From an uncultured Ruminococcus sp. (GTDB lineage: Bacteria > Bacillota > Clostridia > Oscillospirales > CAG-272), in contig CAJKRH010000001.1 of NCBI GenBank assembly GCA_905202255.1, positions 18,940 through 82,939 of the forward strand: a stretch of 64,000 nucleotides of DNA, read 5' to 3'. The translations under genes and the position numbers were made by a program. Shown here one piece after another: positions 16,922-32,647 of this stretch. The notes beneath the pieces are model-generated. The model did no database searches, was not told the DNA's origin, and worked only from the letters and a program-made list of their open reading frames with translations. Numbering within the stretch: position 1 is the stretch's first letter; each line of letters starts with the position of its first letter.

Positions 16922-17218
16922 ATGGAAATAAGCAAGGTACGCGACGGCGAAAAGCTGTCAATCAAACTCTCGGGGCGTCTCGACACGACAACGGCTCCGA
17001 AACTCGAAGCGGAACTCAAGCAGTCGATAGACGGAGTAAAAGCACTCGTTTTCGACTTTGGCGAGGTGGAATATATCTCGTCCGCAGGGCTTCGCGTTCT
17101 GCTCGCCGCGCAGAAAGTCATGAACCGTCAGGGCGAAATGAAACTGACGGGCGTGAATGCGGATGTCATGGAAATCTTTGAGATAACGGGCTTTTCGGAA
17201 ATTCTCACGATAGAATGA
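16922..17218 (+). CDS. STAS-domain anti-sigma-factor antagonist (SpoIIAA/RsbV-like)
   Basis: 98 aa containing ...FDFGEVEYISSAGLRVLLAA with the conserved phosphorylatable Ser context. Confidence 0.85.
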   Translation: MEISKVRDGEKLSIKLSGRLDTTTAPKLEAELKQSIDGVKALVFDFGEVEYISSAGLRVLLAAQKVMNRQGEMKLTGVNADVMEIFEITGFSEILTIE

Positions 17219-17228
17219 GCGGTAAAAT

Positions 17229-19664
17229 ATGAAAACTTATCTTTGGCTTTTTCTCGTATCGCTTTGCCCCGTGGTATTGTCGGCGCTCGTCTATATGGCT
17301 GAGCGGACAAAAGCCGCGCGTAAAATGCCGTATATGGCAAAGCAGATACTGATAGGAATCATGTTCGGCGCGCTGGCAATCATGGGCACGGAATGCGGCG
17401 TCAAAATCGAGGGCGCGGTCATAAACGCCCGCGACGCTTCGCCAATCTGTGCAGGGCTTCTCTTCGGCGCTCCCGCGGGAATCATAGCGGGCGTCATCGG
17501 CGGAGTTGAGCGCTGGTTTGCCGTTTTCTGGGGCGCGGGCGAATATACGCGCCTTGCCTGCAGTATTTCGACTGTTCTCGCAGGCGTTTTCGCGGCTGTT
17601 CTGCGCAAATATATGTTTGACAACAAGAAGCCGAGATGGCACTACTGCCTCGCGACCGCAATCATAACGGAAGTCATACATATGCTGATGATATTCCTGA
17701 CGAATATGTCGGATGTGCACACCGCATTTTCATTCGTGCGCGCATGCTCGCTCCCGATGATAGCGGTAAACGGTCTTTCCGTAATGCTCGCGGGCGCCCT
17801 GCTGTCGCTCCTCTCGGAAAAAGAGCGCAAAAGCACGCGGCACAATCTGAAAAATATCTCGCAGTCCTTTCAGCGATGGCTTCTCATATGCGTGACCGCA
17901 GGCTTCCTCATGACGACGGTATTCACATGGGCGCTTCAGACGGAGCTTGCGAAAAACGACGCAAACGAGCTTATCAGGCTCAATATCGAAGATGTCCGCG
18001 AGGATATCCTCGAGGCTTCAAACAAGAATCTCCTTGAAATCACACGAGAAATTGCCTCGCGCATAGATTCATCCGACAGAGCGAACGCAAAACTGCTCAA
18101 AATGCTCGGAAAAGAATACGATATCGCGGAAATCAATATAATAAACAGTGACGGAATCATAACCGTTTCGACATATGACAGCTTTCTGAATTACGATATG
18201 CGCGGCGGCGAGCAGTCGGCGGAATTTCTCGTTCTCCTCGACGGAGAGACGAAAGAATATGTCCAGAGCTATCAGCCCACCTCATCCGACCCGACCATCT
18301 CGCGCAAATACGCGGGCGTAGCGCTTGCCGACGGCGGCTTTATTCAGGTCGCATACGATGCGGAGCGCTTCCAGAGGGATATCGACGATGTCGTCATCGG
18401 CGTCACGCGGAACCGCCATATCGGCGAGAGCGGAGCGCTCATCATCGTCGGAGAGGACTGGAATATCGTCAGCGACAGACACGGCAACGAGGGCTTAAAC
18501 CTCTATGTCACGGGAATATATATCGACCGCGACACCATGCCCGAAGATAAAACTTTCGAGGCTGTCGCCTACGGTGAGCCGGCATTCTGCTCGTATATCA
18601 TTTCCGAGGGCTACTATATCGTAGCCGTCATGCCGCAGAGCGAAGCGATGTTCTCCCGCGATATCTCCGTGTATATCACGGTATTCATGGAATTTGTCGT
18701 TTTCGGCATGCTCTTCATAGTTGTCTACTTTCTCATAAAGAAGCTTGTGGTGGACAACATGGTCAAGATAAACCGGTCGCTTGCCATGATAACGGGCGGC
18801 AATCTCGACACGGTCGTCAATGTCAGAACAAACGAGGAATTTGCCTCGCTCTCCGACGATATAAATTCGACCGTCGTCACGCTCAAGCGCTATATCGCGG
18901 AGGCGGCGGCGCGTATCGACCGCGAACTCGAATTTGCAAGGTCGATTCAGCATTCGGCGATTCCTTCGGTATTCCCGCCTTATCCCGGGCACAGCGAATT
19001 TGACATATACGCCACGATGGACACGGCAAAGGAGGTCGGCGGCGACTTCTACGATTTCTATTTCGTAGGCGAAAACAAACTCGGCTTCCTCATCGCCGAT
19101 GTTTCCGGCAAGGGAATCCCCGCCGCCATGTTCATGATGACGGCGAAAACCATAATCAAAGGCTATGCCGAAGCCGGCAAGCCTGTGGATGAAGTATTCA
19201 CCACGGCAAACGAAAAACTCTGCGAATCCAACGAAGCGGGAATGTTCGTCACGGCATGGATGGGCGAACTCGATATAGTGACAGGCAAGGTGGAATTTGC
19301 AAATGCAGGGCACAATCCCCCTCTTGTGCGGCATGCAGGCGGCGGCTTTGAATATATGAAATCCAAGCCCGGCTTCATTCTTGCCGGCATGGAGGGTATG
19401 AAATACCGCAAAAACGAATTTACGCTCGCACCCGGCGACGAAATATATCTCTATACCGACGGCGTGACGGAAGCCACGGACAGCGAAAACAATCTTTACG
19501 GCGAGGAGCGGCTTCTCGCTCTGCTGAACAGCATGGGCGATCTCACAGGTGAAGAGATATGCCGCGCCGTGAAAGCCGATATAGACGCTTTTGTCGGAGA
19601 TGCCCCTCAATTTGACGATATTACGATGCTTTATCTGAAATATAACGGAGGTGACGCAAAATGA
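17229..19664 (+). CDS. Membrane sensor PP2C phosphatase (5TMR-LYT-like N-terminus, Cache-like domain, TM/HAMP, SpoIIE/PP2C domain)
   Basis: The N-terminal multi-TM region contains ARDASPICAGLLFGAPAGIIAGVIGGVERW. A central periplasmic-type domain and a second TM plus HAMP-like segment follow. The C-terminal PP2C motifs are GGDFYDF and LYTDGVTEA. Confidence 0.85.
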   Translation: MKTYLWLFLVSLCPVVLSALVYMAERTKAARKMPYMAKQILIGIMFGALAIMGTECGVKIEGAVINARDASPICAGLLFGAPAGIIAGVIGGVERWFAVFWGAGEYTRLACSISTVLAGVFAAVLRKYMFDNKKPRWHYCLATAIITEVIHMLMIFLTNMSDVHTAFSFVRACSLPMIAVNGLSVMLAGALLSLLSEKERKSTRHNLKNISQSFQRWLLICVTAGFLMTTVFTWALQTELAKNDANELIRLNIEDVREDILEASNKNLLEITREIASRIDSSDRANAKLLKMLGKEYDIAEINIINSDGIITVSTYDSFLNYDMRGGEQSAEFLVLLDGETKEYVQSYQPTSSDPTISRKYAGVALADGGFIQVAYDAERFQRDIDDVVIGVTRNRHIGESGALIIVGEDWNIVSDRHGNEGLNLYVTGIYIDRDTMPEDKTFEAVAYGEPAFCSYIISEGYYIVAVMPQSEAMFSRDISVYITVFMEFVVFGMLFIVVYFLIKKLVVDNMVKINRSLAMITGGNLDTVVNVRTNEEFASLSDDINSTVVTLKRYIAEAAARIDRELEFARSIQHSAIPSVFPPYPGHSEFDIYATMDTAKEVGGDFYDFYFVGENKLGFLIADVSGKGIPAAMFMMTAKTIIKGYAEAGKPVDEVFTTANEKLCESNEAGMFVTAWMGELDIVTGKVEFANAGHNPPLVRHAGGGFEYMKSKPGFILAGMEGMKYRKNEFTLAPGDEIYLYTDGVTEATDSENNLYGEERLLALLNSMGDLTGEEICRAVKADIDAFVGDAPQFDDITMLYLKYNGGDAK

Positions 19665-20068
19665 AAGAACTTACTCTTCCCGCAACCATAGAAAATATAG
19701 AAAAAGTGACCGATTTTGTCAACGAACAGCTTGAGGAAATCGAATGCCCGATGAAAGCGCAGATGCAGATAGACATCGCGATAGACGAGCTTTTCGGCAA
19801 TATAGCGCACTATGCATATAATCCCGAGACGGGTCCCGCAACGGTTCGCGTCGAGGTCACGGAGGAGCCTATCTCCGTGGTTATCACATTCATAGATCAC
19901 GGCGTGCCGTATGACCCGCTGAAAAAGGACGACCCCGATATCACGCTTTCCGCAGAGGAACGCGCCATCGGCGGACTCGGAGTTTTCATGGTGAAAAAGA
20001 CCATGGACGAGATTTCCTACGAATACAGGGACGGGAAGAATATCCTCCGCATAAAAAAGAATATGTGA
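19661..20068 (+). CDS. RsbW/SpoIIAB-like anti-sigma factor Ser kinase (HATPase_c)
   Basis: 135 aa containing ...IDELFGNIAHYAY and GGLGVFMVKKTMDE (G-box). ATGA overlap with the phosphatase gene. Confidence 0.8.
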   Translation: MKELTLPATIENIEKVTDFVNEQLEEIECPMKAQMQIDIAIDELFGNIAHYAYNPETGPATVRVEVTEEPISVVITFIDHGVPYDPLKKDDPDITLSAEERAIGGLGVFMVKKTMDEISYEYRDGKNILRIKKNM

Positions 20069-20108: not shown

Positions 20109-20585
20109 ATGAACAGCAGTATTTTTCGCCGGAAAAGCATGGATAAAATCTCGTCTCCCGAGCAGATGAACGATTACATCCGCGTCGCAAACCCGAGCGT
20201 ATGGATGATTCTCGCCGCAGTCATCGTGCTTCTTATCGGCGTGTGCGTGTGGGGAATATACGGACAGCTCGACACAAAGCTGCAGACAGGCGGCATATGC
20301 GAGGACGGGAAGCTCGTATGCTATATAGGCGAAGCCGATTTTGAAAAGGTACAGTCCGGCATGAGCGTGACGGTAGGCGAAAACGAATATACCGTTTCGT
20401 CCGTTGCGTCGGAGCCGACGCGCCTTGACGAAAGCACAGGCTCCTATCTGATACATCTCGCGGGGCTTGCGGAGGGCGACTGGGCTTATGCCGTCGTCGT
20501 AGACGCGCCCGACCTGCAAAACGGCACCTACAGCGTCTCGATAATTCTCGAGCGCGTAAGACCGCTCGACTTTGTACTCGGCTGA
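20109..20585 (+). CDS. Short HlyD-like secretion adaptor of the NHLP/bacteriocin type
   Basis: FRRKSMDKISSPEQMNDYIRV plus a single TM helix (VWMILAAVIVLLIGVCVW) matches the N-terminal signature of bacteriocin-system HlyD proteins. At 158 aa it lacks the long coiled-coil hairpin. Confidence 0.6.
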   Translation: MNSSIFRRKSMDKISSPEQMNDYIRVANPSVWMILAAVIVLLIGVCVWGIYGQLDTKLQTGGICEDGKLVCYIGEADFEKVQSGMSVTVGENEYTVSSVASEPTRLDESTGSYLIHLAGLAEGDWAYAVVVDAPDLQNGTYSVSIILERVRPLDFVLG

Positions 20586-20595
20586 GGTGCGCAGA

Positions 20596-22776
20596 ATGAA
20601 GGAAAATAAAAAAATCAAATCCCCCGTGACAAAAGGGGTGGCGAAAGTTCCCGTCGTGATGCAGATGGAGGCGCTCGAATGCGGCGCCGCAAGCCTTGCG
20701 ATGATTCTCGCCTACTATGGTAAGTGGATACCGCTCGAGCAGGTTCGCCTCGACTGCGGCGTTTCGCGCGACGGCTCGAATGCAAGAAATGTCCTGCGCG
20801 CCGCCCGCAGTTATGGTCTCACGGCAAAGGGATATCGCTATGAGCCCGAAATGCTTCGCAAGGAGGGCAAATTCCCCTGCATCATCCACTGGAATTTCAA
20901 CCATTTCGTCGTGCTCGACGGCTTCCGCGGAAACAAGGCGGTGCTGAACGACCCCGCGAAAGGTACATATACGGTTTCGATGAAAACCTTTGACGAATCC
21001 TTTACGGGAATATGCCTTTTCTTTGAGCCGGACGAAAATTTCATTCCCGGCGGCAAGCCGCAGTCCATGATAAGCTATGCGAAAAAGCGGCTGAAAGGCG
21101 CGGGAACGGCTATAGCTTTTGTCACACTGACGACGATTATTACTTCCCTGTTCGGCATTATAACGCCCGCATTTTCACGCGTTTTTCTCGACCGACTGCT
21201 GACGGGAGAAAATCCCGATTGGCTCATGCCGTTTACGCTCGCGCTCGCGGGCATCAGCCTGATACAGCTGATAGTCGCATGGGTTCAGGCGGTCTATTCG
21301 CTGAAAATCAACGGCAAGCTCGCCATGGTCGGCAATACGGAATTTATGTGGAAAGTGCTCCGCATGCCGATGGAGTTTTTCTCTCAGCGCATGGCAGGCG
21401 ATATACAGGGCAGGCAGTTTTCAAACTCGACAATAGCGGAGCAGCTTGTAAACACCTTCGCGCCGCTCGCGCTCAATGCGCTGATGATGGTATTTTACCT
21501 CGTTGTCATGCTCCGCTACAGCGTGCTTCTGACTCTCATCGGGCTCTCCTCGGTGCTTGCAAACCTGATTCTGTCACGAGTGATATCAAAAAAGCGCATA
21601 AACATCACGCGCGTTCAGATGCGTGATGCGGGCAAGCTTGCGGGAACAACCGTCGCGGGCATAGAAATGATAGAAACCATCAAAGCGAGCGGCGCCGAAA
21701 ACGGATTTTTCGAAAAATGGGCTGGCTATCAGGCGAGCGTCAATACAAATCAGGTGCGTTTTCAGCGCATGAATCAGATTCTCGGTCTGCTTCCTCAGCT
21801 CATAAGCTCTGTATGCGGCACAGCCGTGCTGATGACAGGTGTTTTTCTCGCCATGAAAGGAGAATTCACCGTCGGTATGATAATGGCTTTTCAGGGCTTC
21901 CTCTCCTCATTCGTCTCTCCTGCGATGACGCTTATCTCCGCAGGTCAGTCACTCCAGGAGATGCGCACGGTCATGGAGCGCATCGAGGATGTTATGAAAT
22001 ATCCGACGGACACTGTCCTTGATGCGGCGGCGGATGAAAATGCCGAATATGACAAGCTCTCGGGCAATATCGAGCTGAAAAATGTGACATTCGGCTATTC
22101 GCGCCTTGCCGACCCGCTGATAAAAGATTTCAGCATGACGCTCCGTCCGGGCAGCCGCGTGGCTTTCGTCGGTCCCTCCGGATGCGGCAAATCCACACTC
22201 TCAAAGCTTATCTCGGGGCTTTACAAGCCTTGGAGCGGCGAAATACTTTTTGACGGCAAGCCGATTTCCGAGATAGACCGAAGCGTCTTTACAGGCTCTC
22301 TTGCCGTAGTCGACCAGGATATCATCCTCTTTGAGGACACCATAGCAAACAATATAAAAATGTGGGACAATTCGATAGAGGATTTCGAAATGATAATGGC
22401 GGCGCGCGACGCGCAGCTTCATGAGGACATCATGCAGCGCGACGGCGGCTATCAGTATAAGCTGACAGAGGGCGGCAAGGACTTCTCGGGCGGTCAGCGT
22501 CAGCGCATGGAAATAGCGCGCGTGCTCGCGCAGGACCCGACGATAATCATTCTCGATGAGGCGACGAGTGCACTCGATGCCAAAACGGAATACGATGTTG
22601 TGAAATCCATCAAGGACCGCGGCATCACCTGCATAGTGGTGGCGCACCGCCTTTCCACAATACGCGACTGCGACGAGATAATCGTTCTCGACCGCGGCAT
22701 CGTCGTCGAGCGCGGCACCCACGAGGAGCTGATGAAAAACGGCGGCGCGTATACGCAGCTTGTAGCAAACGAATAA
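20596..22776 (+). CDS. Bacteriocin/NHLP-type ABC exporter with N-terminal C39 peptidase domain
   Basis: C39 catalytic region QMEALECGAASLAMILAYYG, a six-TM core, Walker A GPSGCGKST, signature FSGGQRQR and Walker B IIILDEATSALD. Confidence 0.9.
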   Translation: MKENKKIKSPVTKGVAKVPVVMQMEALECGAASLAMILAYYGKWIPLEQVRLDCGVSRDGSNARNVLRAARSYGLTAKGYRYEPEMLRKEGKFPCIIHWNFNHFVVLDGFRGNKAVLNDPAKGTYTVSMKTFDESFTGICLFFEPDENFIPGGKPQSMISYAKKRLKGAGTAIAFVTLTTIITSLFGIITPAFSRVFLDRLLTGENPDWLMPFTLALAGISLIQLIVAWVQAVYSLKINGKLAMVGNTEFMWKVLRMPMEFFSQRMAGDIQGRQFSNSTIAEQLVNTFAPLALNALMMVFYLVVMLRYSVLLTLIGLSSVLANLILSRVISKKRINITRVQMRDAGKLAGTTVAGIEMIETIKASGAENGFFEKWAGYQASVNTNQVRFQRMNQILGLLPQLISSVCGTAVLMTGVFLAMKGEFTVGMIMAFQGFLSSFVSPAMTLISAGQSLQEMRTVMERIEDVMKYPTDTVLDAAADENAEYDKLSGNIELKNVTFGYSRLADPLIKDFSMTLRPGSRVAFVGPSGCGKSTLSKLISGLYKPWSGEILFDGKPISEIDRSVFTGSLAVVDQDIILFEDTIANNIKMWDNSIEDFEMIMAARDAQLHEDIMQRDGGYQYKLTEGGKDFSGGQRQRMEIARVLAQDPTIIILDEATSALDAKTEYDVVKSIKDRGITCIVVAHRLSTIRDCDEIIVLDRGIVVERGTHEELMKNGGAYTQLVANE

Positions 22777-22791
22777 GGAGGCAGACAGAAT

Positions 22792-24981
22792 ATGGGTTGG
22801 TTTGACGAACAGATAAAAGACCGTAAACGAAACGACGATGACGCTTTTGCCGAAGCGTTTGCCAATATGGCGTCTGCCATAACCGGAAAAAAAATAGAGG
22901 CTTCCTTAAATAATGACCGCACCGTCACAAAGAATGCCATTGATGAAATACTGAAATATTACCATGTAAAAAGCCGTGAGGTTCCCGACGGAATCTCCGA
23001 TATGAACGAGCAGCTCGAATATCTGATGCGCCCCTACGGCATTATGCGGCGCACGGTAAAACTCGAGGAGGGCTGGTACCGCGATGCCGCGGGAGCCATG
23101 CTCGGCGTGCTCGCGGAAAGCGGCAGAGTCGTCGCGCTCATTCCCACAGGGCTTTCGGGCTACAGTTATTTTGACTGGGAAACCGGCAAGCGCCGCCGCA
23201 TAAACCGCAAAAATCAGCATCTTTTCGAGGAGGAAGCTATCGCTTTCTATAAGCCGTTTCCGCTGAAAAAGATAAGTCTCCCCTCGCTTGCCGCGTATAT
23301 CGCTCGGACGCTTTCCGTCTCCGACTATGTGATGATAGGGCTGGCGACTCTCGCGCTATCGCTCATCGGCATGATATCGCCGCTGATTACGAAACTGCTT
23401 TTTGACCGCGTACTGCTCTCGGGCAATGTCCGCCTGCTTATCGCGATAGCGTTTTTCTCGGTTTCCGTCTCGGTGAGCACCCTGCTCATCTCCGCCGTGA
23501 AGAATATGGTCACGGCGCGGATTGAGACAAAGCTGAATATCTCCATAGAGGCGGCTACGATGATGCGTATCATGTCGCTTCCCGCAGACTTTTTCAAGCA
23601 ATACAGCTCAGGTGAGCTTTCGAGCCGCGCATCGCAGATCGGCGCGCTCTGCAAGATGCTCGCCTCCACCGTGCTCTCAACGGGACTGACCTCGGTGTTT
23701 TCTCTCGTCTACATATCGCAGATATTCGCCTATGCTCCGATGCTTGTCGTGCCTGCACTGCTTATCATACTGGCGACAGTCGTATTTTCCGTCGTCTCGT
23801 CGCTTGTCCAGATGAACCTGAGCACGCGCCAGATGGAGCTCTCCGGCAAGGAAAGCGGCATGACATATTCGCTCATCACGGGAATACAGAAAATAAAGCT
23901 TGCGGGCGCCGAGAAGCGTGCCTTTGCGAGATGGGGCAATCTCTATGCCCAGAGCGCGAAACTTGAATACGGTCCTCCCGCATTCATCGAGCTCAATTCC
24001 GTCATCGCGCTCGCCATCAGTCTGGTCGGAACCATCGTGATGTACAGCATGGCGGTGAAATCCGGCATTTCCGTCGCCGATTACTACGCTTTCACTACCG
24101 CCTACGGCATGGTTTCGGGCGCTTTCAGCGCTCTTGCGGGAATCGCTCTGAATGTCGCGCAGATAAAGCCGATGCTGACAATGGTACAGCCGTTTTTTGA
24201 CGCCGTTCCGGAGGTTTCGGACGGCAAGCAGGTGCTCACACGCCTCTCGGGCGGAATAGAAATGAACAATGTCTCTTTCAGATATTCCGAAAACATGCCG
24301 CTCATCATCGACAATCTCTCGCTCAAAATACGCCCCGGGCAGTATGTCGCGATAGTCGGCAAGACCGGCTGCGGAAAATCAACTCTCATGCGTCTGCTGC
24401 TCGGCTTTGAGCATCCGCAGAAAGGCGCCATATACTACGACGGCAAGGACCTCGAACGCATCGACCTGCGTTCCCTGCGCCGCAGAGTCGGCGTCGTCAT
24501 GCAGAACGGCAAGCTTTTCCAGGGCGATATCTACTCAAATATCGTCATTTCCGCGCCGTGGCTCTCGCAGGATGAGGCATGGGAAGCGGCGGAGCTTGCG
24601 GGCATCGCCGACGATATAAGAATGATGCCGATGGGCATGAATACCATCATTTCCGAGGGTTCGGGCGGCATATCGGGCGGTCAGCGGCAGAGACTGATGA
24701 TTGCGCGCGCCGTCGCACCGAAGCCGAAGATACTCATGTTTGACGAGGCGACAAGCGCACTCGACAACATGACGCAGAAAAAGGTTTCCGAGTCGCTTGA
24801 CGCACTCAAATGCACCCGCATCATCATCGCGCACCGCCTCTCCACGATAAAGCAGTGCGACAGGATAATCGTTCTCGACCACGGCAAGATAATCGAGGAC
24901 GGCAAATATGACGAACTTATCGCAAAGAACGGATTTTTCGCCGAGCTTGTGGCGCGCCAGCGCCTTGACGGAGCGCAGTAA
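22792..24981 (+). CDS. Second ABC exporter subunit (permease/ATPase, no peptidase domain)
   Basis: Walker A GKTGCGKST, signature ISGGQRQR and Walker B ILMFDEATSALD. An N-terminal domain of about 150 aa is non-C39. The paired arrangement is typical of NHLP/Nif11 export systems. Confidence 0.85.
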   Translation: MGWFDEQIKDRKRNDDDAFAEAFANMASAITGKKIEASLNNDRTVTKNAIDEILKYYHVKSREVPDGISDMNEQLEYLMRPYGIMRRTVKLEEGWYRDAAGAMLGVLAESGRVVALIPTGLSGYSYFDWETGKRRRINRKNQHLFEEEAIAFYKPFPLKKISLPSLAAYIARTLSVSDYVMIGLATLALSLIGMISPLITKLLFDRVLLSGNVRLLIAIAFFSVSVSVSTLLISAVKNMVTARIETKLNISIEAATMMRIMSLPADFFKQYSSGELSSRASQIGALCKMLASTVLSTGLTSVFSLVYISQIFAYAPMLVVPALLIILATVVFSVVSSLVQMNLSTRQMELSGKESGMTYSLITGIQKIKLAGAEKRAFARWGNLYAQSAKLEYGPPAFIELNSVIALAISLVGTIVMYSMAVKSGISVADYYAFTTAYGMVSGAFSALAGIALNVAQIKPMLTMVQPFFDAVPEVSDGKQVLTRLSGGIEMNNVSFRYSENMPLIIDNLSLKIRPGQYVAIVGKTGCGKSTLMRLLLGFEHPQKGAIYYDGKDLERIDLRSLRRRVGVVMQNGKLFQGDIYSNIVISAPWLSQDEAWEAAELAGIADDIRMMPMGMNTIISEGSGGISGGQRQRLMIARAVAPKPKILMFDEATSALDNMTQKKVSESLDALKCTRIIIAHRLSTIKQCDRIIVLDHGKIIEDGKYDELIAKNGFFAELVARQRLDGAQ

Positions 24982-25072
24982 AGGCGAATTTTGAAAAAAT
25001 ATAAAAAATTTTGAAATTTCATTAGCCTTTTTCATTTTTACTCCGTATAAATAAGCAGAAGGGAGAAAGAAA

Positions 25073-25309
25073 GTGATAAGAAGAAAAACCAATCAACAGA
25101 AAAAGACCTTTTCTGCAAGTGAAAAAGAACTTTTCGCACTTTTTGACTATCAGCGCTTTGAAAACGACCCTGTGCTGAAAGTGCTTATAGACGAAGCCGA
25201 GGGAGCTTTCGACTCCGAAATATCGGACGATATGCTTTCGCAGGTCAGCGCCGCGGGAGAAGCGACACCGGAGAGTAAACGCGAAGACCGCGAGGACGGT
25301 GCACTATGA
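25073..25309 (+). CDS. Small acidic protein, translationally coupled to the sigma factor gene
   Basis: GTG start with GGGAGA 8 nt upstream. 78 aa. The stop overlaps the sigma ATG (ATGA). It contains SEISDDMLSQVSAAGE, which resembles a degenerate double-glycine leader end. Confidence 0.5.
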   Translation: MIRRKTNQQKKTFSASEKELFALFDYQRFENDPVLKVLIDEAEGAFDSEISDDMLSQVSAAGEATPESKREDREDGAL

Positions 25310-25791
25310 TTTCGATGGCGGAAAAAGAAGAGCTTTACACAGAATACCGCGAAAAAGTTGCCGGCTATGTTTTCGGGAAACTGCAAAACAGACACGACGC
25401 CGAGGATATTATCAGCGAGATATTTCTGAAGGTATACGAAAAATATTCATCATACGACGGAGAGCGTGCTTCCCTCTCGACATGGATTTACACCGTTACG
25501 CGAAATACCGTAATCGACTATTTCCGCTCGAACAAAAGCGAAGAGGAACTGCCCGAAGATTTTTCCTGCGGCGACCTTGAAGAGGACGAATTTCTGAAAA
25601 AGGAATCTCTGCACGAGCTCGGCAGGGCGCTCACGGAGCTTGACGAACGCTCCCGCGCGCTGATAATATTCAGATACTACAAGGAAATGACTCTGAAAGA
25701 AATCGCCGACCGCATGGGAATCTCTTATGCATATGTGAAGATACTGCACAAAAGCGCACTGCACGACCTGCGGGCGCGGATAAGCAGATAG
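25306..25791 (+). CDS. ECF-like sigma-70 family RNA polymerase sigma factor
   Basis: 161 aa with region 2 (DAEDIISEIFLKVYEKY...STWIYTVTRNTVIDYFR) and a region 4 HTH (MTLKEIADRMGISYAYVKILHKSAL). Confidence 0.85.
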   Translation: MISMAEKEELYTEYREKVAGYVFGKLQNRHDAEDIISEIFLKVYEKYSSYDGERASLSTWIYTVTRNTVIDYFRSNKSEEELPEDFSCGDLEEDEFLKKESLHELGRALTELDERSRALIIFRYYKEMTLKEIADRMGISYAYVKILHKSALHDLRARISR

Positions 25792-25865: not shown

Positions 25866-26075
25866 ATGAAAATCGAAAGAAAAACACTCGAAGAAGTAAG
25901 AGGCGCAAAGAGCGCCGAGGAGCTGAAAACGCTCCTTGAGGGCAAAAACATCGCGCTGACAATGGCGCAGGCAGAGGAGCTTTTTGCCAAGCTGCCGCTC
26001 TCCGATGATGAGCTTGAGCAGGTCGCAGGAGGTATCTCGCTTCACAAACGCGTCGAATTTCCTCCTCGAAAATAA
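25866..26075 (+). CDS. Nif11-like leader peptide with double-glycine site and a 13-aa Cys-free core (ISLHKRVEFPPRK)
   Basis: The leader reads ...GAKSAEELKTLLEGKNIALTMAQAEELFAKLPLSDDELEQVAGG. AGGAAG lies upstream of the ATG. Confidence 0.7.
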   Translation: MKIERKTLEEVRGAKSAEELKTLLEGKNIALTMAQAEELFAKLPLSDDELEQVAGGISLHKRVEFPPRK

Positions 26076-26207
26076 GCCGCGCATAAAGGGGAAGTGCGAA
26101 ATACGGCTTTGCAAAAGCATCTGAGCCGGCAAGAATTTGCTTTGATGCGGCTTAAAGCAACCCTATCACAGCAAACAAAAAATAAAAATACAAAGGAGAG
26201 TACAACC

Positions 26208-26600
26208 ATGAAAATGAACAATGAACTCATCGCAAAGGCAAAAGAAGCAAAAACCGCCGAGGAGCTCATGGCTCTGGCAAAGGAAAGCGGCGAAGAAATT
26301 ACCGAAGAGAGCGCAAAAGCTTATTTCGACCTGCTGAATCCCAAAACAGGCGAACTCTCCGACGATGAGCTTGACAATGTATCGGGCGGCGGATGCTACA
26401 ATGGCGACAGGCTTGTTATTTCCTTAATGCACTACTGCGATGAATGGCGCTGCAAGGACGACGGCTCACAGTGCAGTATACAAGGACCGTTGGCATGTTG
26501 CAATACATGCAAGATTGCCGCGTATTGCCACTCCTGCCATTACTGCTCATATGAAAAAGGTCTGTGGCTCTGCAACAACCAAGCCAACATGAAGAAATAA
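26208..26600 (+). CDS. Nif11-like double-glycine precursor, 69-aa core with 11 Cys
   Basis: The leader MKMNNELIAKAKEAKTAEELMALAKESGEEITEESAKAYFDLLNPKTGELSDDELDNVSGG is followed by GCYNGDRLVISLMHYCDEWRCKDDGSQCSIQGPLACCNTCKIAAYCHSCHYCSYEKGLWLCNN.... AAGGAGAG RBS. The tracked longer ORF lacks an RBS. Confidence 0.8.
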   Translation: MKMNNELIAKAKEAKTAEELMALAKESGEEITEESAKAYFDLLNPKTGELSDDELDNVSGGGCYNGDRLVISLMHYCDEWRCKDDGSQCSIQGPLACCNTCKIAAYCHSCHYCSYEKGLWLCNNQANMKK

Positions 26601-26677
26601 TATAAAAAGATGATATTACAGAGCTGAACAAAATTCAATCCGACATATTTAAAGATAACTTATAAAGGAGAAATATC

Positions 26678-27049
26678 ATGGCAATAAATAATGAAATCAT
26701 GGCAAAAGCAAAAGAAGCAAAATCAGTCGAAGAGCTCATGGCTCTCGCAAAAGAAAACGGCATGGAAATGACGGAAGAAAGCGCAAATACATATTGGGGT
26801 CAGCTTCATCCGGCATCGGGCGAGCTCTCCGACGAGGAACTTGACAATGTATCGGGCGGCGCATGCTACGCGAGCGACGGTTATCTCATGACCACTATCG
26901 GTTACAAATGCAAATATTTCGAAAAAGGCGCGGCAGGAATAAATGGCACCTGCTGTGCATGCAAATATTGGGATCAGCGCGACAGAAACGGTTATGAAGA
27001 ACTGGGACGCCCTGTCAGATGCCTCAATCCGAATAACAGAAAAGGCTGA
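26678..27049 (+). CDS. Nif11-like double-glycine precursor, 62-aa core with 6 Cys
   Basis: The leader ends ELSDEELDNVSGG. The core is ACYASDGYLMTTIGYKCKYFEKGAAGINGTCCACKYWDQ.... AAGGAG RBS. Confidence 0.8.
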   Translation: MAINNEIMAKAKEAKSVEELMALAKENGMEMTEESANTYWGQLHPASGELSDEELDNVSGGACYASDGYLMTTIGYKCKYFEKGAAGINGTCCACKYWDQRDRNGYEELGRPVRCLNPNNRKG

Positions 27050-27100
27050 TTGCACCCGCGGAATACAGATTTAAAATTTACATATAACAGGAGTTAAAAA

Positions 27101-27517
27101 ATGAACAGTGAACTTATCGCAAAGGCAAGAGCGGCGAAATCCGCCGAAGAGCTTGCCGCTCTCGCAAAAGAAAACGGCATAGACATCACAGAAGAAATCG
27201 CAAATGAATATTTCGACAGGCTTCATCCGGCGCTCGGCGAGCTCTCCGACGAAGAACTCGACAATGTGGCAGGCGGCGGATGCTACTCTGATGGCGGACG
27301 CCTTAAGACCACCAGCGGCTATAAATGCAAGCATTATGCAGACGGACAGTCCACCTATGGCATAAAAGGCACATGCTGCAGATGCAGATACTGGGGCGTT
27401 GACCCTAACGCTATCAGCGGTTCCCTTTGGACAACTCTCATAGAGCTGATAATAAGAGCGGCTGAAGCGGCAGAGCCCCGCGAGTGCTATCATCCCGCTA
27501 ACAGCAAAAAGGGCTGA
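27101..27517 (+). CDS. Nif11-like double-glycine precursor, 79-aa core with 6 Cys
   Basis: The leader ends ELSDEELDNVAGG. The core GCYSDGGRLKTTSGYKCKHYADGQSTYGIKGTCCRCRYWGVD... shares CY..DG.L..T.GYKCK.Y...G..GTCC.C.YW with the previous peptide. Confidence 0.8.
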   Translation: MNSELIAKARAAKSAEELAALAKENGIDITEEIANEYFDRLHPALGELSDEELDNVAGGGCYSDGGRLKTTSGYKCKHYADGQSTYGIKGTCCRCRYWGVDPNAISGSLWTTLIELIIRAAEAAEPRECYHPANSKKG

Positions 27518-27561
27518 TATATCGCGCAGCTGAGATTTAAATTTCTCATCATTCTGAAAAT

Positions 27562-27595
27562 ATCTCGGCACGGCTGATTTATACCGCGCCGAGAT
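27562..27595 (+). promoter_or_regulatory. Candidate partial terminator/attenuator hairpin between the precursors and the maturase
   Basis: ATCTCGGCACGG-10 nt-CCGCGCCGAGAT forms a 12-bp stem with one mismatch, followed by TTTGT. The T-tract is weak. Confidence 0.3.
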
Positions 27596-27638
27596 TTGTA
27601 AAAGCACAAAAACGACCGACCTTCAAACGGAGAAAGCA

Positions 27639-29024
27639 ATGCAATATATATTGAATCCGAATATTGCTCTGCGCTCATGGCAGCTTGTGCCTTATGCCTA
27701 TTACATAAAAGGAGAGCGGAATGCAATCGGGCTGAAAAAAGAAGAATTTGAATTTCTGTCGTCATGCGACGGGAAAACCGAGCTGCCGTCGGCAGAGGAA
27801 AGCGCCCTCGCGCGCGATTTGATGGGAAAAGGCTTCATCCGCGAAGCGAAAAACGGCGAAAGTCTCTCCGATTGGAACAGGGCGCGCTTTTGCGACAACA
27901 GATACTTCCCTGCCATGAACTGGATGATAACAGGCAAATGCAACTACAATTGCATTCATTGCTTCAATGCCGCCGACAATGCTCCGCTCATGAGCGAATG
28001 GAGCATGGAGGAGGCAGAGCATTTGCTCGATGAGGCACGCGATTGCGGCGTCAATGCCTTTACGATAACAGGCGGCGAACCGATGCTCCATAAAAACTTT
28101 TTCGATATACTCGAAGGCATTTACTCGCGCGGAATGTATGTCGAGGAGCTGAATACAAACGGTTATTTCATAAATCGGCAGACACTCCTGCGCATGAAGG
28201 CGCTCGGATGCATGCCGCTTATGAAAATATCTTTTGACGGCATCGGTTATCATGATTGGATGCGTAATCACAAGGGCGCCGAGGAAACGGCACTGCATGC
28301 GATATCGCTCTGCCATGAATTGGGATTTCGCGTCAAAGTGCAGACAAATATGAACCGCCGCAATCACAGCAGTATGCTCGAAACGGCAAAGGTGCTCGAT
28401 TCGATGGGCGTTGATGAAATGCGCATAATACGCACGACAGAAGCACCGAGGTGGGTGCAGAATGCAGGCGATGCCTGCCTTACATTCGAAGAATATTTCG
28501 ATGAAGCGCTCGCGCTCTGGCAGGAATACGCGGCAGGCAACCACCGCATGAATCTGACCGTATGGCAGTTCGGAACGCTCTATCCGATGCATAATTTCTA
28601 TACTCTCGCCGCCGTCGCCTCATGCACAGGCAAATATCGCGACAGTGCGCCCGTATGCAAGGGAAATCGCGGAATGATAGCTGTGGCGGCAAACGGCAAT
28701 CTCTATCCCTGCCATCAGATGTCGGGCTATTATGAACAGCACGGCGATTTTCTCGGCAATCTGAAAAAGACGCCGCTTCGCGATATGCTCTCGGGCGGCA
28801 AATATCTCGATGAAGTCTGCACGACTATAGGCACTCTGCGCGAGAAAAACGAAAAATGCGGCAAGTGTACGCATTTTGAACAGTGCAACGGCGGTTGCCG
28901 TGCGGTTGCGCTCGCAATTACGGGTGATAAACTCGGAATCGACCCCTCCAAATGTCTTTTCTGGGAAAAGGGCTACGCCGAAAAAATCGCGGCGGCTCTG
29001 CCCGCTTACAGCACAAATATGTAA
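27639..29024 (+). CDS. Radical SAM / SPASM-domain peptide maturase
   Basis: A CNYNCIHC (Cx3Cx2C) cluster follows an N-terminal domain of about 100 aa that may be RRE-like. The C-terminal auxiliary-cluster cysteines are CKGNRGMIAVAANGNLYPCHQ...CGKCTHFEQCNGGC...C. Confidence 0.85.
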   Translation: MQYILNPNIALRSWQLVPYAYYIKGERNAIGLKKEEFEFLSSCDGKTELPSAEESALARDLMGKGFIREAKNGESLSDWNRARFCDNRYFPAMNWMITGKCNYNCIHCFNAADNAPLMSEWSMEEAEHLLDEARDCGVNAFTITGGEPMLHKNFFDILEGIYSRGMYVEELNTNGYFINRQTLLRMKALGCMPLMKISFDGIGYHDWMRNHKGAEETALHAISLCHELGFRVKVQTNMNRRNHSSMLETAKVLDSMGVDEMRIIRTTEAPRWVQNAGDACLTFEEYFDEALALWQEYAAGNHRMNLTVWQFGTLYPMHNFYTLAAVASCTGKYRDSAPVCKGNRGMIAVAANGNLYPCHQMSGYYEQHGDFLGNLKKTPLRDMLSGGKYLDEVCTTIGTLREKNEKCGKCTHFEQCNGGCRAVALAITGDKLGIDPSKCLFWEKGYAEKIAAALPAYSTNM

Positions 29025-29055
29025 TGATTTTAATTTAACAGAACGGAGATTAAAT

Positions 29056-29289
29056 ATGAATAATCAAAATAACGAAACAAAAGAATATACACTCACAGAT
29101 GAAGAACTGAACACAGTCTGCGGCGGTATATCGTCAAGAACACCCGGCATCGCCTGCCCGCACTGCGGCAAGCTTATTCCGATAACCATCACGGAGTTGC
29201 TGACTCAGGGGCACCTCAGATGCCCGTACTGCCTTTTAAAGCTGAAAATCAACAGAACTTCTCTCGAAACACTCAAAAAACAAAAATAA
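29056..29289 (+). CDS. Double-glycine leader peptide with a 53-aa zinc-ribbon-like core
   Basis: The leader MNNQNNETKEYTLTDEELNTVCGG fits LSxxELxxVxGG. The core is ISSRTPGIACPHCGKLIPITITELLTQGHLRCPYCLLKLKINR.... GGAGA RBS. The tracked longer ORF overlaps the rSAM gene. Confidence 0.65.
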   Translation: MNNQNNETKEYTLTDEELNTVCGGISSRTPGIACPHCGKLIPITITELLTQGHLRCPYCLLKLKINRTSLETLKKQK

Positions 29290-29332
29290 ACTGCGGCAAA
29301 CCTGCCGTTATGTGCAGTCAATAAAATAGAAA

Positions 29333-29369
29333 TGATGACGAACCGCAAAGCGGTTCGTCATCATTTTTA
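29333..29369 (+). terminator. Strong rho-independent terminator ending the peptide operon
   Basis: TGATGACGAACCGC-AAA-GCGGTTCGTCATCA is followed by TTTTT. Confidence 0.8.
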
Positions 29370-29587: not shown

Positions 29588-29764
29588 ATGAAAGCAACAG
29601 GAATCGTGCGGCGCATAGATGATCTCGGCAGGGTTGTCATTCCCAAAGAGATACGCCGTACAATGAGAATACGCGAGGGCGACCCGACGCTGACAACATT
29701 GACACCCGTTGCTCGATTCTTGTATGCTCTGATGGATTTATCCAAGAGAATTGGACTGAATTGA
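29588..29764 (+). pseudogene. spoVT: spoVT 5' fragment: 33 host codons, then 25 element-derived codons and a stop
   Basis: MKATGIVRRIDDLGRVVIPKEIRRTMRIREGDP is nearly identical to the Bacillus SpoVT N-terminus. GGAGG sits at 29573..29577. After 29686 the sequence reads TLTTLTPVARFLYALMDLSKRIGLN-stop. The ORF is under 60 aa, so it is absent from the track. Confidence 0.85.
29678..29685 (+). repeat. attL core GGCGACCC
   Basis: The identical 8-mer occurs in the same codon phase at 61315..61322. It contains a GA dinucleotide. Confidence 0.7.
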
Positions 29765-29783
29765 AGAAAACTACATAGGGAAA
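29721..29783 (+). repeat. 63-bp direct repeat, copy A
   Basis: 61 of 63 positions are identical to 32585..32647. The perfect run 29728..29775 equals 32592..32639. Confidence 0.9.
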
Positions 29784-30281: not shown

Positions 30282-30316
30282 ATACAGTAGGATTTTTATT
30301 GTGGGAGGACACGATA

Positions 30317-31492
30317 ATGCTGTTGCAATTTTCAGTAACGAACCATCGTTCCATAAAGGAAAAAGCAGTTATCAGCATGAAAGCAACTGCTGATAAATCG
30401 TTAAAAGAGTGCTTGATCAGCCCGGATGGAAAAAAAGAACTTGTCCCTGTTATGGCGATTTACGGTGCAAATGCCGCGGGCAAAAGTAATATGATTCAAG
30501 CTTTGCTTTTAATGCGTGATATGGTATGCGGTGAATACGCAAAACCGTTGAAAGGTGCGGAACTTCCGTGGGAACCGTTTGCCTTTACAGATGATAAAGA
30601 TGAAAGACCGACAGATTTTGAAATTATCTATTATTATGAGGGAACAAAATATGCTTACGGTTATTCCTTCAATAGAGACAGGATCATAAGCGAGTATCTT
30701 TATCATTGGCCCAATGGCAGAGAGGCGCTTGTCTTTTCGAGGGATAATGATAAATACGAGTTTCGTGAGAGTATTCAAGAGCAATTAACGCTTGCCGGAC
30801 GCACCTCTGAAAATCGCCTATATCTTACAAGCTCAAACGAGTGGAATTGTCCGCAGACGGAAAAGGCATATCTTTGGTTTCAAAGATATTTGCGCGGACT
30901 TATTGCAACAGGGGTATCTAACAACACTACACTTGATGCCATTCGTAAGGGTGGAGATAACAAGAACCGTGTTTTGGAAGAAATGATGTTTGCTGATTTG
31001 GGCATCTGTGATGTGGTATTGTCGGGAACAAAAGAAAAGCCGACGATAGCAACGGTCCACCAATTGGAAAAAGCGGACGGGAGCAAAAAACAGTATTCTT
31101 TGCTGTTGGGACAGGAATCAATGGGAACACAGCGATTCTTTTCACGAATCGGTTCTTGGATTGAATCACTTGAAGCCGGAGCTGTGCTTGTAGTAGATGA
31201 AATAGAGTCAAGTATGCATCCGCTTTTAACCAGACATCTGATTGAAATGTTTCAGGATCAGACAATAAATGATAAGCACGCACAGTTGATATTTACCACG
31301 CACGATACAGGCTTACTTGATTTGAAACTTTTGCGTCGCGATCAGATTTGGTTTGCAGAGAAAAACGAAAAAACAATGGGAACCGATATTTATGCCCTTA
31401 CTGAATTTTCTCCGAGAAAGGAAGAAAATATCGCACGAGGATACCTGCAAGGACGATACGGGGCAATTCCGTTTGTCGGAGGAGGTATCTGA
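30317..31492 (+). CDS. AAA/ABC-type ATPase (AAA_15/AAA_21-like), AbiLi-like
   Basis: MLLQFSVTNHRSIKE..., Walker A YGANAAGKSN and Walker B-like AVLVVDEIESSMHP. GGGAGGA RBS before ATG 30317. Confidence 0.75.
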   Translation: MLLQFSVTNHRSIKEKAVISMKATADKSLKECLISPDGKKELVPVMAIYGANAAGKSNMIQALLLMRDMVCGEYAKPLKGAELPWEPFAFTDDKDERPTDFEIIYYYEGTKYAYGYSFNRDRIISEYLYHWPNGREALVFSRDNDKYEFRESIQEQLTLAGRTSENRLYLTSSNEWNCPQTEKAYLWFQRYLRGLIATGVSNNTTLDAIRKGGDNKNRVLEEMMFADLGICDVVLSGTKEKPTIATVHQLEKADGSKKQYSLLLGQESMGTQRFFSRIGSWIESLEAGAVLVVDEIESSMHPLLTRHLIEMFQDQTINDKHAQLIFTTHDTGLLDLKLLRRDQIWFAEKNEKTMGTDIYALTEFSPRKEENIARGYLQGRYGAIPFVGGGI

Positions 31493-31493
31493 T

Positions 31494-32117
31494 ATGGGAA
31501 GAATCAAAGAGGTAGAACGCAGGAGTTTCGGCAGTCGAAAAAGAAATCCCGTTGTGTATCTGATTTGCGAAGGCTCAGAAACCGAAATTCGCTATTTCAA
31601 GAAATTTCGCAGCAGAGAGTGTCACATAGATATTGTTCCTATTCCGTCACAGTATAAATCTGCTGACAAGCTTGTTCAGAAAGCAAGATCAACCATTGCA
31701 ATGAATCCGTATTATCCCGATGAAGGCGACATTATTTGGTGCGTGTTTGACTGCGACGATAACACAAATCAAATGCTTGCGAAAGCAAAACAGGTTGCTA
31801 TAAAAGAGGGATATAAATTAGCCTTTTCCAATCCGTCTTTTGAGGTTTGGTTCTTGTTACACTTCAATAATCAGATTACACCGGTTGAAAATTGCGATGC
31901 AGCAATCAAGCTTTTGAAGCAGAAAGGGCGCTTGGAGCAGTATGAGAAAAACAAAAATGTGTATGATCAGCTCAAACCGCTGCAAGCTCTTGCGATAGAA
32001 AGAGCTAAAAACCGAGTATCGGTATTGAAAGAAGAACACACAGAAATCATTTCCAGACAAAGCAATCCGGCAACAACGGTTGCGGAGCTGGTGGAATACT
32101 TAAATAGCAAGCAGTAA
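31494..32117 (+). CDS. RloB-like protein, AbiLii-like
   Basis: MGRIKEVERRSFGSRKRNPVVYLICEGSETEIRYFKKF... and ...IWCVFDCDD...AFSNPSFEVWFLLHF are typical of the RloB family. The start overlaps the ATPase stop (TGATATG). Confidence 0.7.
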   Translation: MGRIKEVERRSFGSRKRNPVVYLICEGSETEIRYFKKFRSRECHIDIVPIPSQYKSADKLVQKARSTIAMNPYYPDEGDIIWCVFDCDDNTNQMLAKAKQVAIKEGYKLAFSNPSFEVWFLLHFNNQITPVENCDAAIKLLKQKGRLEQYEKNKNVYDQLKPLQALAIERAKNRVSVLKEEHTEIISRQSNPATTVAELVEYLNSKQ

Positions 32118-32370: not shown

Positions 32371-32584
32371 ATAGCCAAAAAAACGATAGCGGAGAAAGAG
32401 ATGCCAAAACAGTATCGTCTTTCTCCGCTTTTTCTGTTTATCGGATATCCCAGTCGGCGAATGACTTCTGTGATTGATTGCGTTGTATCATACATTGCAA
32501 TTGCCTTTTCCTTTTGCTTCCTTGTGTACATAATCCCTTCCTTTCTTTCTGTCCAGGATTTTGTCCGCAGGCCCTACCGACTTG

Positions 32585-32647
32585 TGTATGTTCTGATGGA
32601 TTTATCCAAGAGAATTGGACTGAATTGAAGAAAACTACACAGGGAAA
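32585..32647 (+). repeat. 63-bp direct repeat, copy B
   Basis: See copy A. The + frame again ends ...VLMDLSKRIGLN-stop. Confidence 0.9.

Follow-up and report, generated by a model that had tools for sequence, protein, structure and literature searches.

We analysed a 64,000-nucleotide stretch of DNA (the window, whose coordinates are used throughout) from contig CAJKRH010000001.1 of an uncultured Ruminococcus sp., a Firmicute of the class Clostridia. The window holds a cassette of genes, all on the + strand, in which an array of small precursor genes stands between genes for an export system and a gene for a radical S-adenosylmethionine (SAM)/SPASM enzyme. Its Nif11-like double-glycine (GG) leaders, its one radical SAM/SPASM enzyme and its exporters of the NHLP type support, at the level of sequence, its assignment to the cassettes that make peptides which are synthesized ribosomally and modified post-translationally (RiPPs). 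The genes and features that bear on this assignment are listed below.

20109-20585, + strand: p158, short HlyD-like membrane protein of 158 amino acids; TIGR03794 (NHLM_micro_HlyD) matched at positions 1-52, 45.6 bits against a cut-off of 156.2
20572-22776, + strand: C39-peptidase ATP-binding cassette (ABC) exporter (PCAT); TIGR03796, 949.1 bits against a cut-off of 853.3
22792-24981, + strand: second ABC permease/ATPase subunit (ABC2); TIGR03797, 738.7 bits against a cut-off of 709.4
25866-26075, + strand: pre0, 69 amino acids; Nif11-like GG leader of 56 amino acids, matched by the leader hidden Markov model (HMM), and a cysteine-free core of 13 amino acids, ISLHKRVEFPPRK
26208-26600, + strand: preA; leader of 61 amino acids and core of 69 (26391-26597) with 11 cysteines and the motif GCYNGD
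26678-27049, + strand: preB; leader of 61 amino acids and core of 62 (26861-27046) with 6 cysteines and the motif ACYASD
27101-27517, + strand: preC; leader of 59 amino acids and core of 79 (27278-27514) with 6 cysteines and the motif GCYSDG
27639-29024, + strand: predicted radical SAM/SPASM maturase of 461 amino acids; Pfam Radical_SAM 65.9 bits and SPASM 26.0 bits, both above cut-off
27639-27908, + strand: N-terminal domain of the maturase (residues 1-90), similar to a RiPP recognition element (RRE)
27939-27962, + strand: CX3CX2C motif of the maturase
28656-28955, + strand: SPASM cysteine motif of the maturase
29056-29289, + strand: fifth GG peptide; leader of 24 amino acids and core of 53, from open reading frame (ORF) and leader alignment, with no Nif11 domain

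Precursors in the window

An earlier reading of the sequence (the original prediction) had reported four consecutive genes with Nif11-type leaders, three of them with unusually long cores, and our analysis confirmed this description together with the core lengths and cysteine counts given above. The start of preA was placed at the ATG at 26208, which lies 3' of the ribosome-binding site AAAGGAGAG; the longer ORF from 26094 is not used. The products of pre0, preA, preB and preC share the leader consensus ...AK(S/T)AEEL.ALAKE.G...TEE...ELSD(D/E)ELDNV(S/A)GG. Each of the four leaders has V(A/S)GG at its end, and a C39-peptidase ABC exporter is encoded in the same cassette; PCAT would be expected to cleave after the GG and to export the product. 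The leader model TIGR03798 (leader_Nif11) gave 30.8, 28.1 and 30.6 bits for preA, preB and preC (cut-off 32.3), and Pfam Nif11 (PF07862) gave 16-19.5 bits for the same three proteins (cut-off 23.8). Close homologues pass the Pfam model, among them P0138 with 25.0 bits, and by these scores the leaders in the window appear to be borderline, divergent members of the Nif11 group.

Alignment of the preA, preB and preC cores revealed one homologous scaffold, with an N-proximal cysteine (core residue 2 in preA) and four invariant cysteines (C16, C46, C49 and C61 in preA core numbering). These proteins had been described as three paralogues that differ in cysteine count; they are instead versions of a single scaffold, to which the preA type adds a cysteine-rich insertion that in its homologues often reads CKKCGG...CxxCG. 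In 68 aligned homologues of preB and preC, five cysteines are kept and the sixth varies, and the core motif that had been noticed in both proteins is conserved. An AlphaFold2 (AF2) model of the precursor, built with these 68 homologues, showed a helical leader and a compact preB core (pLDDT 86-93); a Foldseek search of the model against the PDB returned nothing with E < 1.

The cores fell outside named families. Pfam and NCBIfam searches with the cores alone and with whole precursors returned the leader match and chance-level matches only. Neither preA, preB nor preC had a Pfam match in its core; preB and preC contain one CxxC each, and preA lacks a CxxCG...CxxCG pair. A phmmer search with the preC core against 1.84 billion representative proteins recovered only precursors of the same family and repeat artefacts, the latter being the eukaryotic tandem-repeat protein P0242 and two giant repetitive proteins. 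The label in the NCBI records is "radical SAM protein" for the enzyme and "hypothetical protein" for the precursors. Full-text literature searches, some of them with verbatim stretches of the leader and the core, turned up no description of the family, and the reviews and compendia checked by term do not mention it. The original suggestion of a candidate new peptide family was upheld in so far as neither cores nor enzyme fell in a described family across Pfam, NCBIfam, the preC-core search, the NCBI records and the literature. One homologue of preB and preC, P0213, in which the end of the leader is duplicated (…DELDNVSGGCHTKGGLSDDELDNVAGGGCHTKGG…), carries a precomputed match to PF28158, a model outside the Pfam set that we searched; newer Pfam releases may already contain a model that touches this precursor family.

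Two other interpretations of the precursors were considered and set aside. The first slot of the array is occupied by different genes from locus to locus, and the possibility that pre0 is a frameshifted long precursor was unsupported: in a DNA alignment with the closest locus (L004), the core region had no recognisable homology. A canonical lipobox was rejected on reading the sequence: a hydrophobic signal-peptide region is missing from the leader, and the spacing of V-[AS]-G-G-(G)-C differs from that of L-[AS]-[GA]-C.

The fifth GG peptide falls within the interval covered by the original prediction and was absent from its text. Its short, non-Nif11 leader, MNNQNNETKEYTLTDEELNTVCGG, ends in TVCGG, and its core is zinc-ribbon-like (CPHC...CPYC, with sub-threshold Pfam matches) and has no N-proximal cysteine. 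A homologue lies directly 3' of the enzyme gene in 11 loci. The peptide is probably exported via the same PCAT, yet not recognised by the enzyme.

Enzyme and exporter

The enzyme contains a CX3CX2C motif (C101/C105/C108) and a complete seven-cysteine SPASM motif, C340-X13-G-X4-C358 ... C407-X2-C410-X5-C416-X3-C420 ... C439, which agrees with the two clusters first described for it. Every cysteine of both motifs was invariant in 80 enzyme sequences. The AF2 model of the enzyme had a pLDDT of 92 and a pTM of 0.90, and its top fold match in the PDB was SuiB (E 1.9e-16, 484 aligned columns, TM 0.63-0.66), followed by SkfB, PqqE and anSME. The alignment with SuiB, which bears an RRE, spans the whole model including the N-terminal ~90 residues; AF2 folded these residues confidently as beta3-alpha-beta-alpha-beta. 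Pfam PqqD gave no match in this domain at E <= 1. The proposal that the enzyme has a recognition domain is therefore supported by the modelled fold, which is RRE-like over the N-terminal ~90 amino acids, and not by a sequence model.

Comparisons by sequence were weaker. Matches to PDB sequences were to BlsE, SkfB (E 1.8e-9), viperin and PqqE. Among the 25 best NCBIfam matches, all far below their cut-offs, the enzyme reached the cut-off of no maturase model; the best were AhbD and NirJ at ~116 bits, which we read as generic SPASM similarity. A role in heme biosynthesis, as these two names might suggest, was rejected on the strength of the RRE-like domain and the linkage to precursors. The sactisynthase model StsB (NF045574) gave 91.2 bits against a cut-off of 625 and was the only thioether-synthase model among the NCBIfam matches listed, with no PapB-like model at cut-off. 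The model for nif11-class peptide radical SAM maturase 3 (TIGR04103) gave 70.3 bits against a cut-off of 725. Judged from its motifs and its model, the enzyme has the architecture of a peptide maturase.

The exporter had been described as an NHLP set of a short HlyD-like protein, a C39-peptidase ABC protein and a second ABC protein, and most of this description stood. PCAT and ABC2 both pass the cut-offs of the NHLP/NHLM equivalog models TIGR03796 and TIGR03797, and "short HlyD-like" is accurate for p158. The part that did not stand is full membership of the HlyD family, for which a protein of ~420 amino acids is expected: p158 has 158 and matches TIGR03794 at positions 1-52 only. The truncated form is itself conserved, being found in 45 loci and always 5' of the PCAT gene.

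Distribution and gene order

A database search recovered 1590 relatives of the enzyme at E <= 1e-20, the best 120 of which are 61-93% identical, and 1210 relatives of preC. In a scan of GTDB with one genome per species, enzyme relatives were present in 381 species genomes. The best 80 of these 381, for which we describe taxonomy, are nearly all from gut Oscillospiraceae, Ruminococcaceae, Lachnospiraceae and related Clostridia; they include the cultured carriers Sporofaciens musculi and "Bacterium D16-36", and a few bins labelled Bacteroidota, Spirochaetota or Actinomycetota, which may be mis-binned. The closest relative of the window (88%) is a metagenome-assembled genome of an uncultured Eubacteriales from Hadza gut samples.

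The gene order also recurred. A tblastn survey with the window's proteins gave the order p158, PCAT, ABC2, (p78, sigma), precursors, enzyme, where p78 and sigma are regulatory genes described below. In the synteny set of 83 related loci, many of them truncated, PCAT was found in 50, ABC2 in 50, p158 in 45, the sigma factor in 32 and p78 in 29, and the same order was seen on independent metagenome contigs. Recurrence in dozens of independent genomes places the arrangement beyond chance. Homologues of the enzyme are likewise linked to such peptides elsewhere: the leader HMM identified 282 precursors adjoining the enzyme in 76 of 84 sources (1-12 per locus), and many of the remaining eight sources are truncated contigs.

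One array was found apart from any enzyme gene. Locus L084 (7100-10850 of ENA contig k141_47215, 202 kb) holds nine genes for leader-plus-cysteine precursors among housekeeping genes, and the 8 kb to each side of the array contain neither a radical SAM nor an exporter gene. An array of precursors can thus stand apart from the enzyme, which in this case could be encoded elsewhere in the genome.

This array, the fifth peptide of the window with its non-Nif11 leader, and the occurrence in some arrays of precursors that are cysteine-free or have no N-proximal cysteine are all compatible with a first alternative to peptide maturation. According to it, the cores are rarely or never modified and resemble class II bacteriocins stabilised by metal or disulfides; they would have no more than an exporter in common with the enzyme, whose true substrate lies elsewhere (p78, one precursor, or a non-peptide). 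However, the enzyme carries an RRE-like domain and adjoins leader-bearing precursors in the 76 sources just mentioned. The orphan array keeps the same leader and cysteine, and its enzyme could be distant. The N-proximal cysteine, moreover, would be left unexplained. We regard this explanation as highly improbable.

Core diversity and the cysteine beside the cleavage site

The precursors yielded 268 unique cores with a median length of 69 amino acids (range 9-113) and 0-13 cysteines. The 233 long cores, defined as those of at least 40 amino acids, were clustered by BLAST after deletion of their first four residues. They fell into 39 unrelated sequence clusters, the largest of which contains the preA, preB and preC cores. 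Despite the removal of the first four residues from the clustering, 32 of the 39 clusters have a cysteine at positions +1 to +3 after the GG. Such a cysteine is present in 213 of the 233 long cores; when the cores were shuffled in 1000 trials, the average count was 64 and the highest 85. The number and spacing of internal cysteines vary between clusters, whereas the N-proximal cysteine is conserved.

The clusters differ widely in the rest of the core. In the largest low-cysteine cluster, all 15 of 15 cores have the N-proximal cysteine, either as the sole cysteine or as one of two. One cluster has a single cysteine, after which a Gly-rich linker leads to a beta-rich domain, and gives a sub-threshold match to Tudor. 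Many clusters have exactly five cysteines, one N-terminal and four in CPxCG...CxxCG knuckles; the best zinc-ribbon match among related cores, to Zn_Ribbon_TF, was sub-threshold (27.2 bits against a cut-off of 29). The second precursors of loci L005, L013, L014 and L027 carry the same leader, and their cores are cysteine-free, Asn-rich and repetitive (TEITDNESIKINNNNFDTSIKF...). These cores cannot be cysteine-modified and are unlike every other core.

Acidic residues are enriched near the N-proximal cysteine. Of the cores, 49% have Asp or Glu at Cys+4 (background 10%), and at least one occurs within Cys+1 to Cys+8 in 173 of the 213 cores, compared with 124 (maximum 144) for random windows.

These data bear directly on the chemistry first proposed, in which thioethers formed from the many cysteines were called the obvious guess. 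In its full form, this explanation makes the enzyme a sacti- or ranthipeptide-type synthase that converts most core cysteines to thioethers, giving a peptide of 60-80 amino acids with 5-11 links. It draws support from the cysteine-rich cores of the window, from the full two-cluster SPASM motif, which is typical of thioether synthases, and from the presence of the StsB model and SkfB among the weak matches of the enzyme; QhpD shows that a SPASM enzyme can cross-link a substrate of ~100 amino acids several times. However, the same enzyme family (61-88% identical) also sits beside cores with one or two cysteines, and beside many cores of the 1 + 4 type in which four cysteines form CxxC...CxxC knuckles. 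Internal cysteines, unlike the N-proximal one, are conserved neither in number nor in spacing between clusters. The enzyme reaches the cut-off of no thioether-synthase family, and AF2 predicts a confident, compact core fold from sequence alone. One enzyme family thus adjoins 39 unrelated core clusters that share only the cysteine at +1 to +3, and we therefore favour a single target cysteine over a network. The idea of many cysteines as cross-link donors is probably wrong, and a multiply cross-linked product seems rather unlikely to us.

Proposed mechanism

What the sequences show is a GG-ending, Nif11-like leader fused to interchangeable cores of 55-100 amino acids, beside one RRE-radical SAM-SPASM enzyme. 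Arguing from sequence and by analogy, we tentatively propose, as a reading that is plausible and falls short of probable, that the cassette is a conserved operon of gut Clostridia for making and exporting a repertoire of small, leader-tagged mini-proteins, on which one leader-guided enzyme acts at the N-proximal cysteine. The N-terminal domain of the enzyme would first bind the Nif11-like leader. The enzyme would then modify the cysteine that lies 1-3 residues after the GG in nearly all cores, because nothing else recurs in dozens of unrelated cores for a single enzyme to act on. The most economical, and likeliest, chemistry would be a short intramolecular thioether from this cysteine to a nearby Asp or Glu, as in PapB, closing a small N-terminal ring. 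PapB joins cysteine to Asp or Glu at C-X3-D/E motifs and tolerates n = 0-6 residues between the two (PMC9413430). For preA and preB the predicted link would be C-X3-D, and for preC it would be C-X2-D. The other cysteines (the scaffold's four, and the CxxC...CxxC pairs elsewhere) would probably be structural, binding a metal or forming disulfides within a folded domain. Finally, PCAT would cut after the GG and export the product.

Several observations weigh against this proposal. By sequence, the enzyme lies outside every thioether-forming family (91 bits against 625 for StsB, and below cut-off for PapB-like models). No Asp or Glu follows within eight residues of the cysteine in 40 of the 213 cores; many preC-type homologues read CYSSGGRL, with no acidic residue nearby; and the acidic signal at Cys+4 is dominated by one large cluster. 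About 9% of the long cores, including the cysteine-free Asn-rich ones, have no N-proximal cysteine; these would be either unmodified passengers or substrates whose target is defined otherwise. The zinc binding that we attribute to some cores is suggested solely by cysteine spacing and sub-threshold Pfam matches, and the predicted core fold had no PDB match in Foldseek. Lastly, in many clusters the cysteine lies within a tail that is rich in Gly and Ser and resembles a linker (GCGGGG..., GCGSSSS...), and a flexible tail of this sequence would suit a free handle as well as a ring.

This last point leads to a further alternative, namely that the N-proximal cysteine is modified without an intramolecular cross-link. 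It might become formylglycine, as with anSME, or a reactive or anchoring group, and the tail would then be a tethering handle comparable to the cysteine-plus-linker of a lipoprotein. In many clusters the cysteine is indeed followed by a linker rich in Gly, Ser, Lys or Asp and by a folded domain (GCGGGGNDDRPKPRF..., GCGSSSSGGSS..., CGGSSEP...), single-cysteine cores occur, and anSME, which acts on one cysteine of protein-sized substrates, is among the best fold matches. The target motif of anSME is C-x-P/A-x-R. This motif is absent here, however, and the cassette has no lipid- or sugar-handling gene. In the largest cluster, to which the window's cores belong, the cysteine lies inside a conserved structured motif and not on a linker. 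The enrichment of Asp and Glu at +4 would also go unexplained. We judge this alternative improbable.

Comparison with known systems

The proposed single thioether was compared with PapB/freyrasin, a ranthipeptide system with Cys-X3-Asp/Glu beta/gamma-thioethers. Both systems use a radical SAM/SPASM enzyme on a leader-guided peptide substrate; preA and preB have Cys-X3-Asp at the conserved site, and an acidic residue at Cys+4 is frequent among the cores, as given above. In contrast, our enzyme matches no such model at cut-off and so is not a member by sequence. Here a single motif stands at the N-terminus of a core of 55-100 amino acids, whereas the PapB substrate is a short peptide with six tandem motifs. 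The leader here is Nif11-like with GG/PCAT processing, and the chemistry is suggested by motif compatibility alone.

In the prochlorosin/ProcM system, a single tailoring enzyme processes many paralogous precursors per genome, which have Nif11-type GG leaders and unrelated cores, and a PCAT-type exporter is used. The cassette resembles it in its Nif11-like GG leaders, and shares the paralogous precursors with unrelated cores, the single enzyme and the PCAT-type exporter. The differences are that our enzyme is a radical SAM/SPASM protein and ProcM a LanM lanthionine synthetase, that the cores here are 55-100 amino acids long and look like folded domains, and that the hosts are anaerobic gut Clostridia and not marine cyanobacteria.

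The streptide maturase SuiB is the closest solved structure, with the same architecture of RRE (RRE-like in our model), radical SAM and SPASM domains and a full-length fold alignment. Identity is only 14%, however, SuiB forms a Lys-Trp C-C bond in a short peptide, and the precursors are unrelated. QhpD/QhpC and anSME are precedents for SPASM enzymes that act on cysteine in polypeptides of ~100 amino acids or more, and anSME is again among the top fold matches of our model; unlike these systems, the cassette lacks both a C-x-P-x-R motif and a context of amine-dehydrogenase or sulfatase genes, and its enzyme belongs to neither family by sequence.

The nearest prior mention is a generic one. Letzel et al. 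2014 (PMC4289311) found, by genome mining of anaerobes, NHLP/Nif11 clusters with peptidase-transporter and radical SAM genes and cores of at most 59 amino acids. Those clusters resemble the present one in general architecture, in that several precursors with long GG leaders accompany genes for a peptidase-transporter and for radical SAM proteins; they are genome-mining listings, none of which has been characterised.

Regulation and neighbouring DNA

Further features lie upstream of, within and at the end of the cassette.

16922-17218, + strand: STAS anti-sigma-factor antagonist, which opens a partner-switching trio; TIGR00377, 72.6 bits against a cut-off of 53.45
17229-19664, + strand: membrane SpoIIE/PP2C-type phosphatase of the trio; weak SiaA and SpoIIE-family matches at residues 553-804
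19661-20068, + strand: RsbW-like anti-sigma kinase (HATPase_c_2) of the trio; RsbW and SpoIIAB matches below their cut-offs
25023-25048, + strand: promoter-like element TAGCC-N16-CGTAT, 5' of p78 and sigma; conserved in an upstream alignment of ~20 loci, with a putative function
25073-25309, + strand: p78, small conserved protein of 78 amino acids found in 29 loci, with a putative role
25306-25791, + strand: extracytoplasmic function (ECF)-type sigma-70 family factor; TIGR02937, 107.6 bits against a cut-off of 42.9
27562-27595, + strand: hairpin between preC and the enzyme gene; GC-rich stem of 8 bp, in both the minimum-free-energy and the centroid folds
29328-29368, unstranded: strong bidirectional terminator hairpin at the end of the operon; perfect stem of 17-19 bp, -48.4 kcal/mol, z = -10.1

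The stop codon of p78 overlaps the start of the sigma gene in the window, and in all 29 loci that have p78 it lies immediately 5' of that gene and overlaps it. The C-terminal half of p78 resembles the end of the leader (EISDDMLSQVSAAGE) and reads E(I/L)SDDxLxxV(S/N)AAGE, with AAG replacing GG; the leader HMM matches it weakly over the last 12 positions. From its sequence, p78 could act as a regulator or anti-sigma factor that mimics the leader and is removed by the exporter. The TAGCC-N16-CGTAT element has a single + strand match in the cassette, 5' of p78, and two in the whole window (0.4 expected); no ECF-type promoter was found before each precursor. The hairpin at 27562-27595 is followed by TTTGT, and the stability of its region only modestly exceeded that of shuffled sequence (z-score -1.8). 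It is possibly an attenuator or partial terminator that keeps precursor transcripts in excess. From these sequence features and the partner-switching trio described next, the genes may form one operon driven by the sigma factor, perhaps under control that is coupled to export.

The partner-switching trio (16922-20068) stands directly 5' of the exporter genes. Near related cassettes, homologues of the STAS protein were found in 16 loci, of the phosphatase in 10 and of the RsbW-like kinase, directly 5' of the exporter genes, in 22; locus L001 has a SpoIIE + HATPase_c_2 gene at the phosphatase position. The trio may control the sigma factor of the cassette.

On the 3' side, a 70-nucleotide direct repeat (29714-29783 and 32578-32647, 93% identical) bounds a segment of 2.86 kb that contains a defence-type pair of genes, an AAA_21 ATPase (30299-31492) and an RloB-like protein (31494-32117). 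The first copy of the repeat overlaps the end of a truncated AbrB/MazE-like ORF (29588-29764). The segment has the appearance of an island that was inserted just downstream of the cassette.

Significance of the cassette

Uncharacterised radical SAM RiPP families are numerous, and on its sequences this one is distinguished by protein-sized cores, by the modular and hypervariable nature of those cores, and by the conserved cysteine at the cleavage site. A more far-reaching view would make the cassette a new class of radical-SAM-tagged secreted mini-proteins. One leader-guided enzyme would place a single cysteine modification beside the cleavage site as an N-terminal tag or cap, and would not cross-link the scaffold; the cargo would be rapidly diversifying folded domains (zinc-ribbon-like, Tudor/SH3-like and others). 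Expression could be coupled to export through p78 as a leader-mimicking partner of the sigma factor, which PCAT might remove by the logic of FlgM. As a whole, we consider this view unlikely.

The family is large, with at least 381 bacterial species, mostly uncultured Clostridia of the human and animal gut, and arrays of up to 12 precursors. If one cysteine is indeed marked on unrelated domains of 55-100 amino acids, the logic of RiPPs would reach beyond short peptides to modular cargo of protein size, and a promiscuous leader-directed enzyme could be used to modify mini-proteins at a specific site. Such a result would also reveal a large and unexplored set of secreted molecules. Their most plausible biological role is in competition or signalling among gut bacteria, and they would be likely to act in this way in the gut microbiome.

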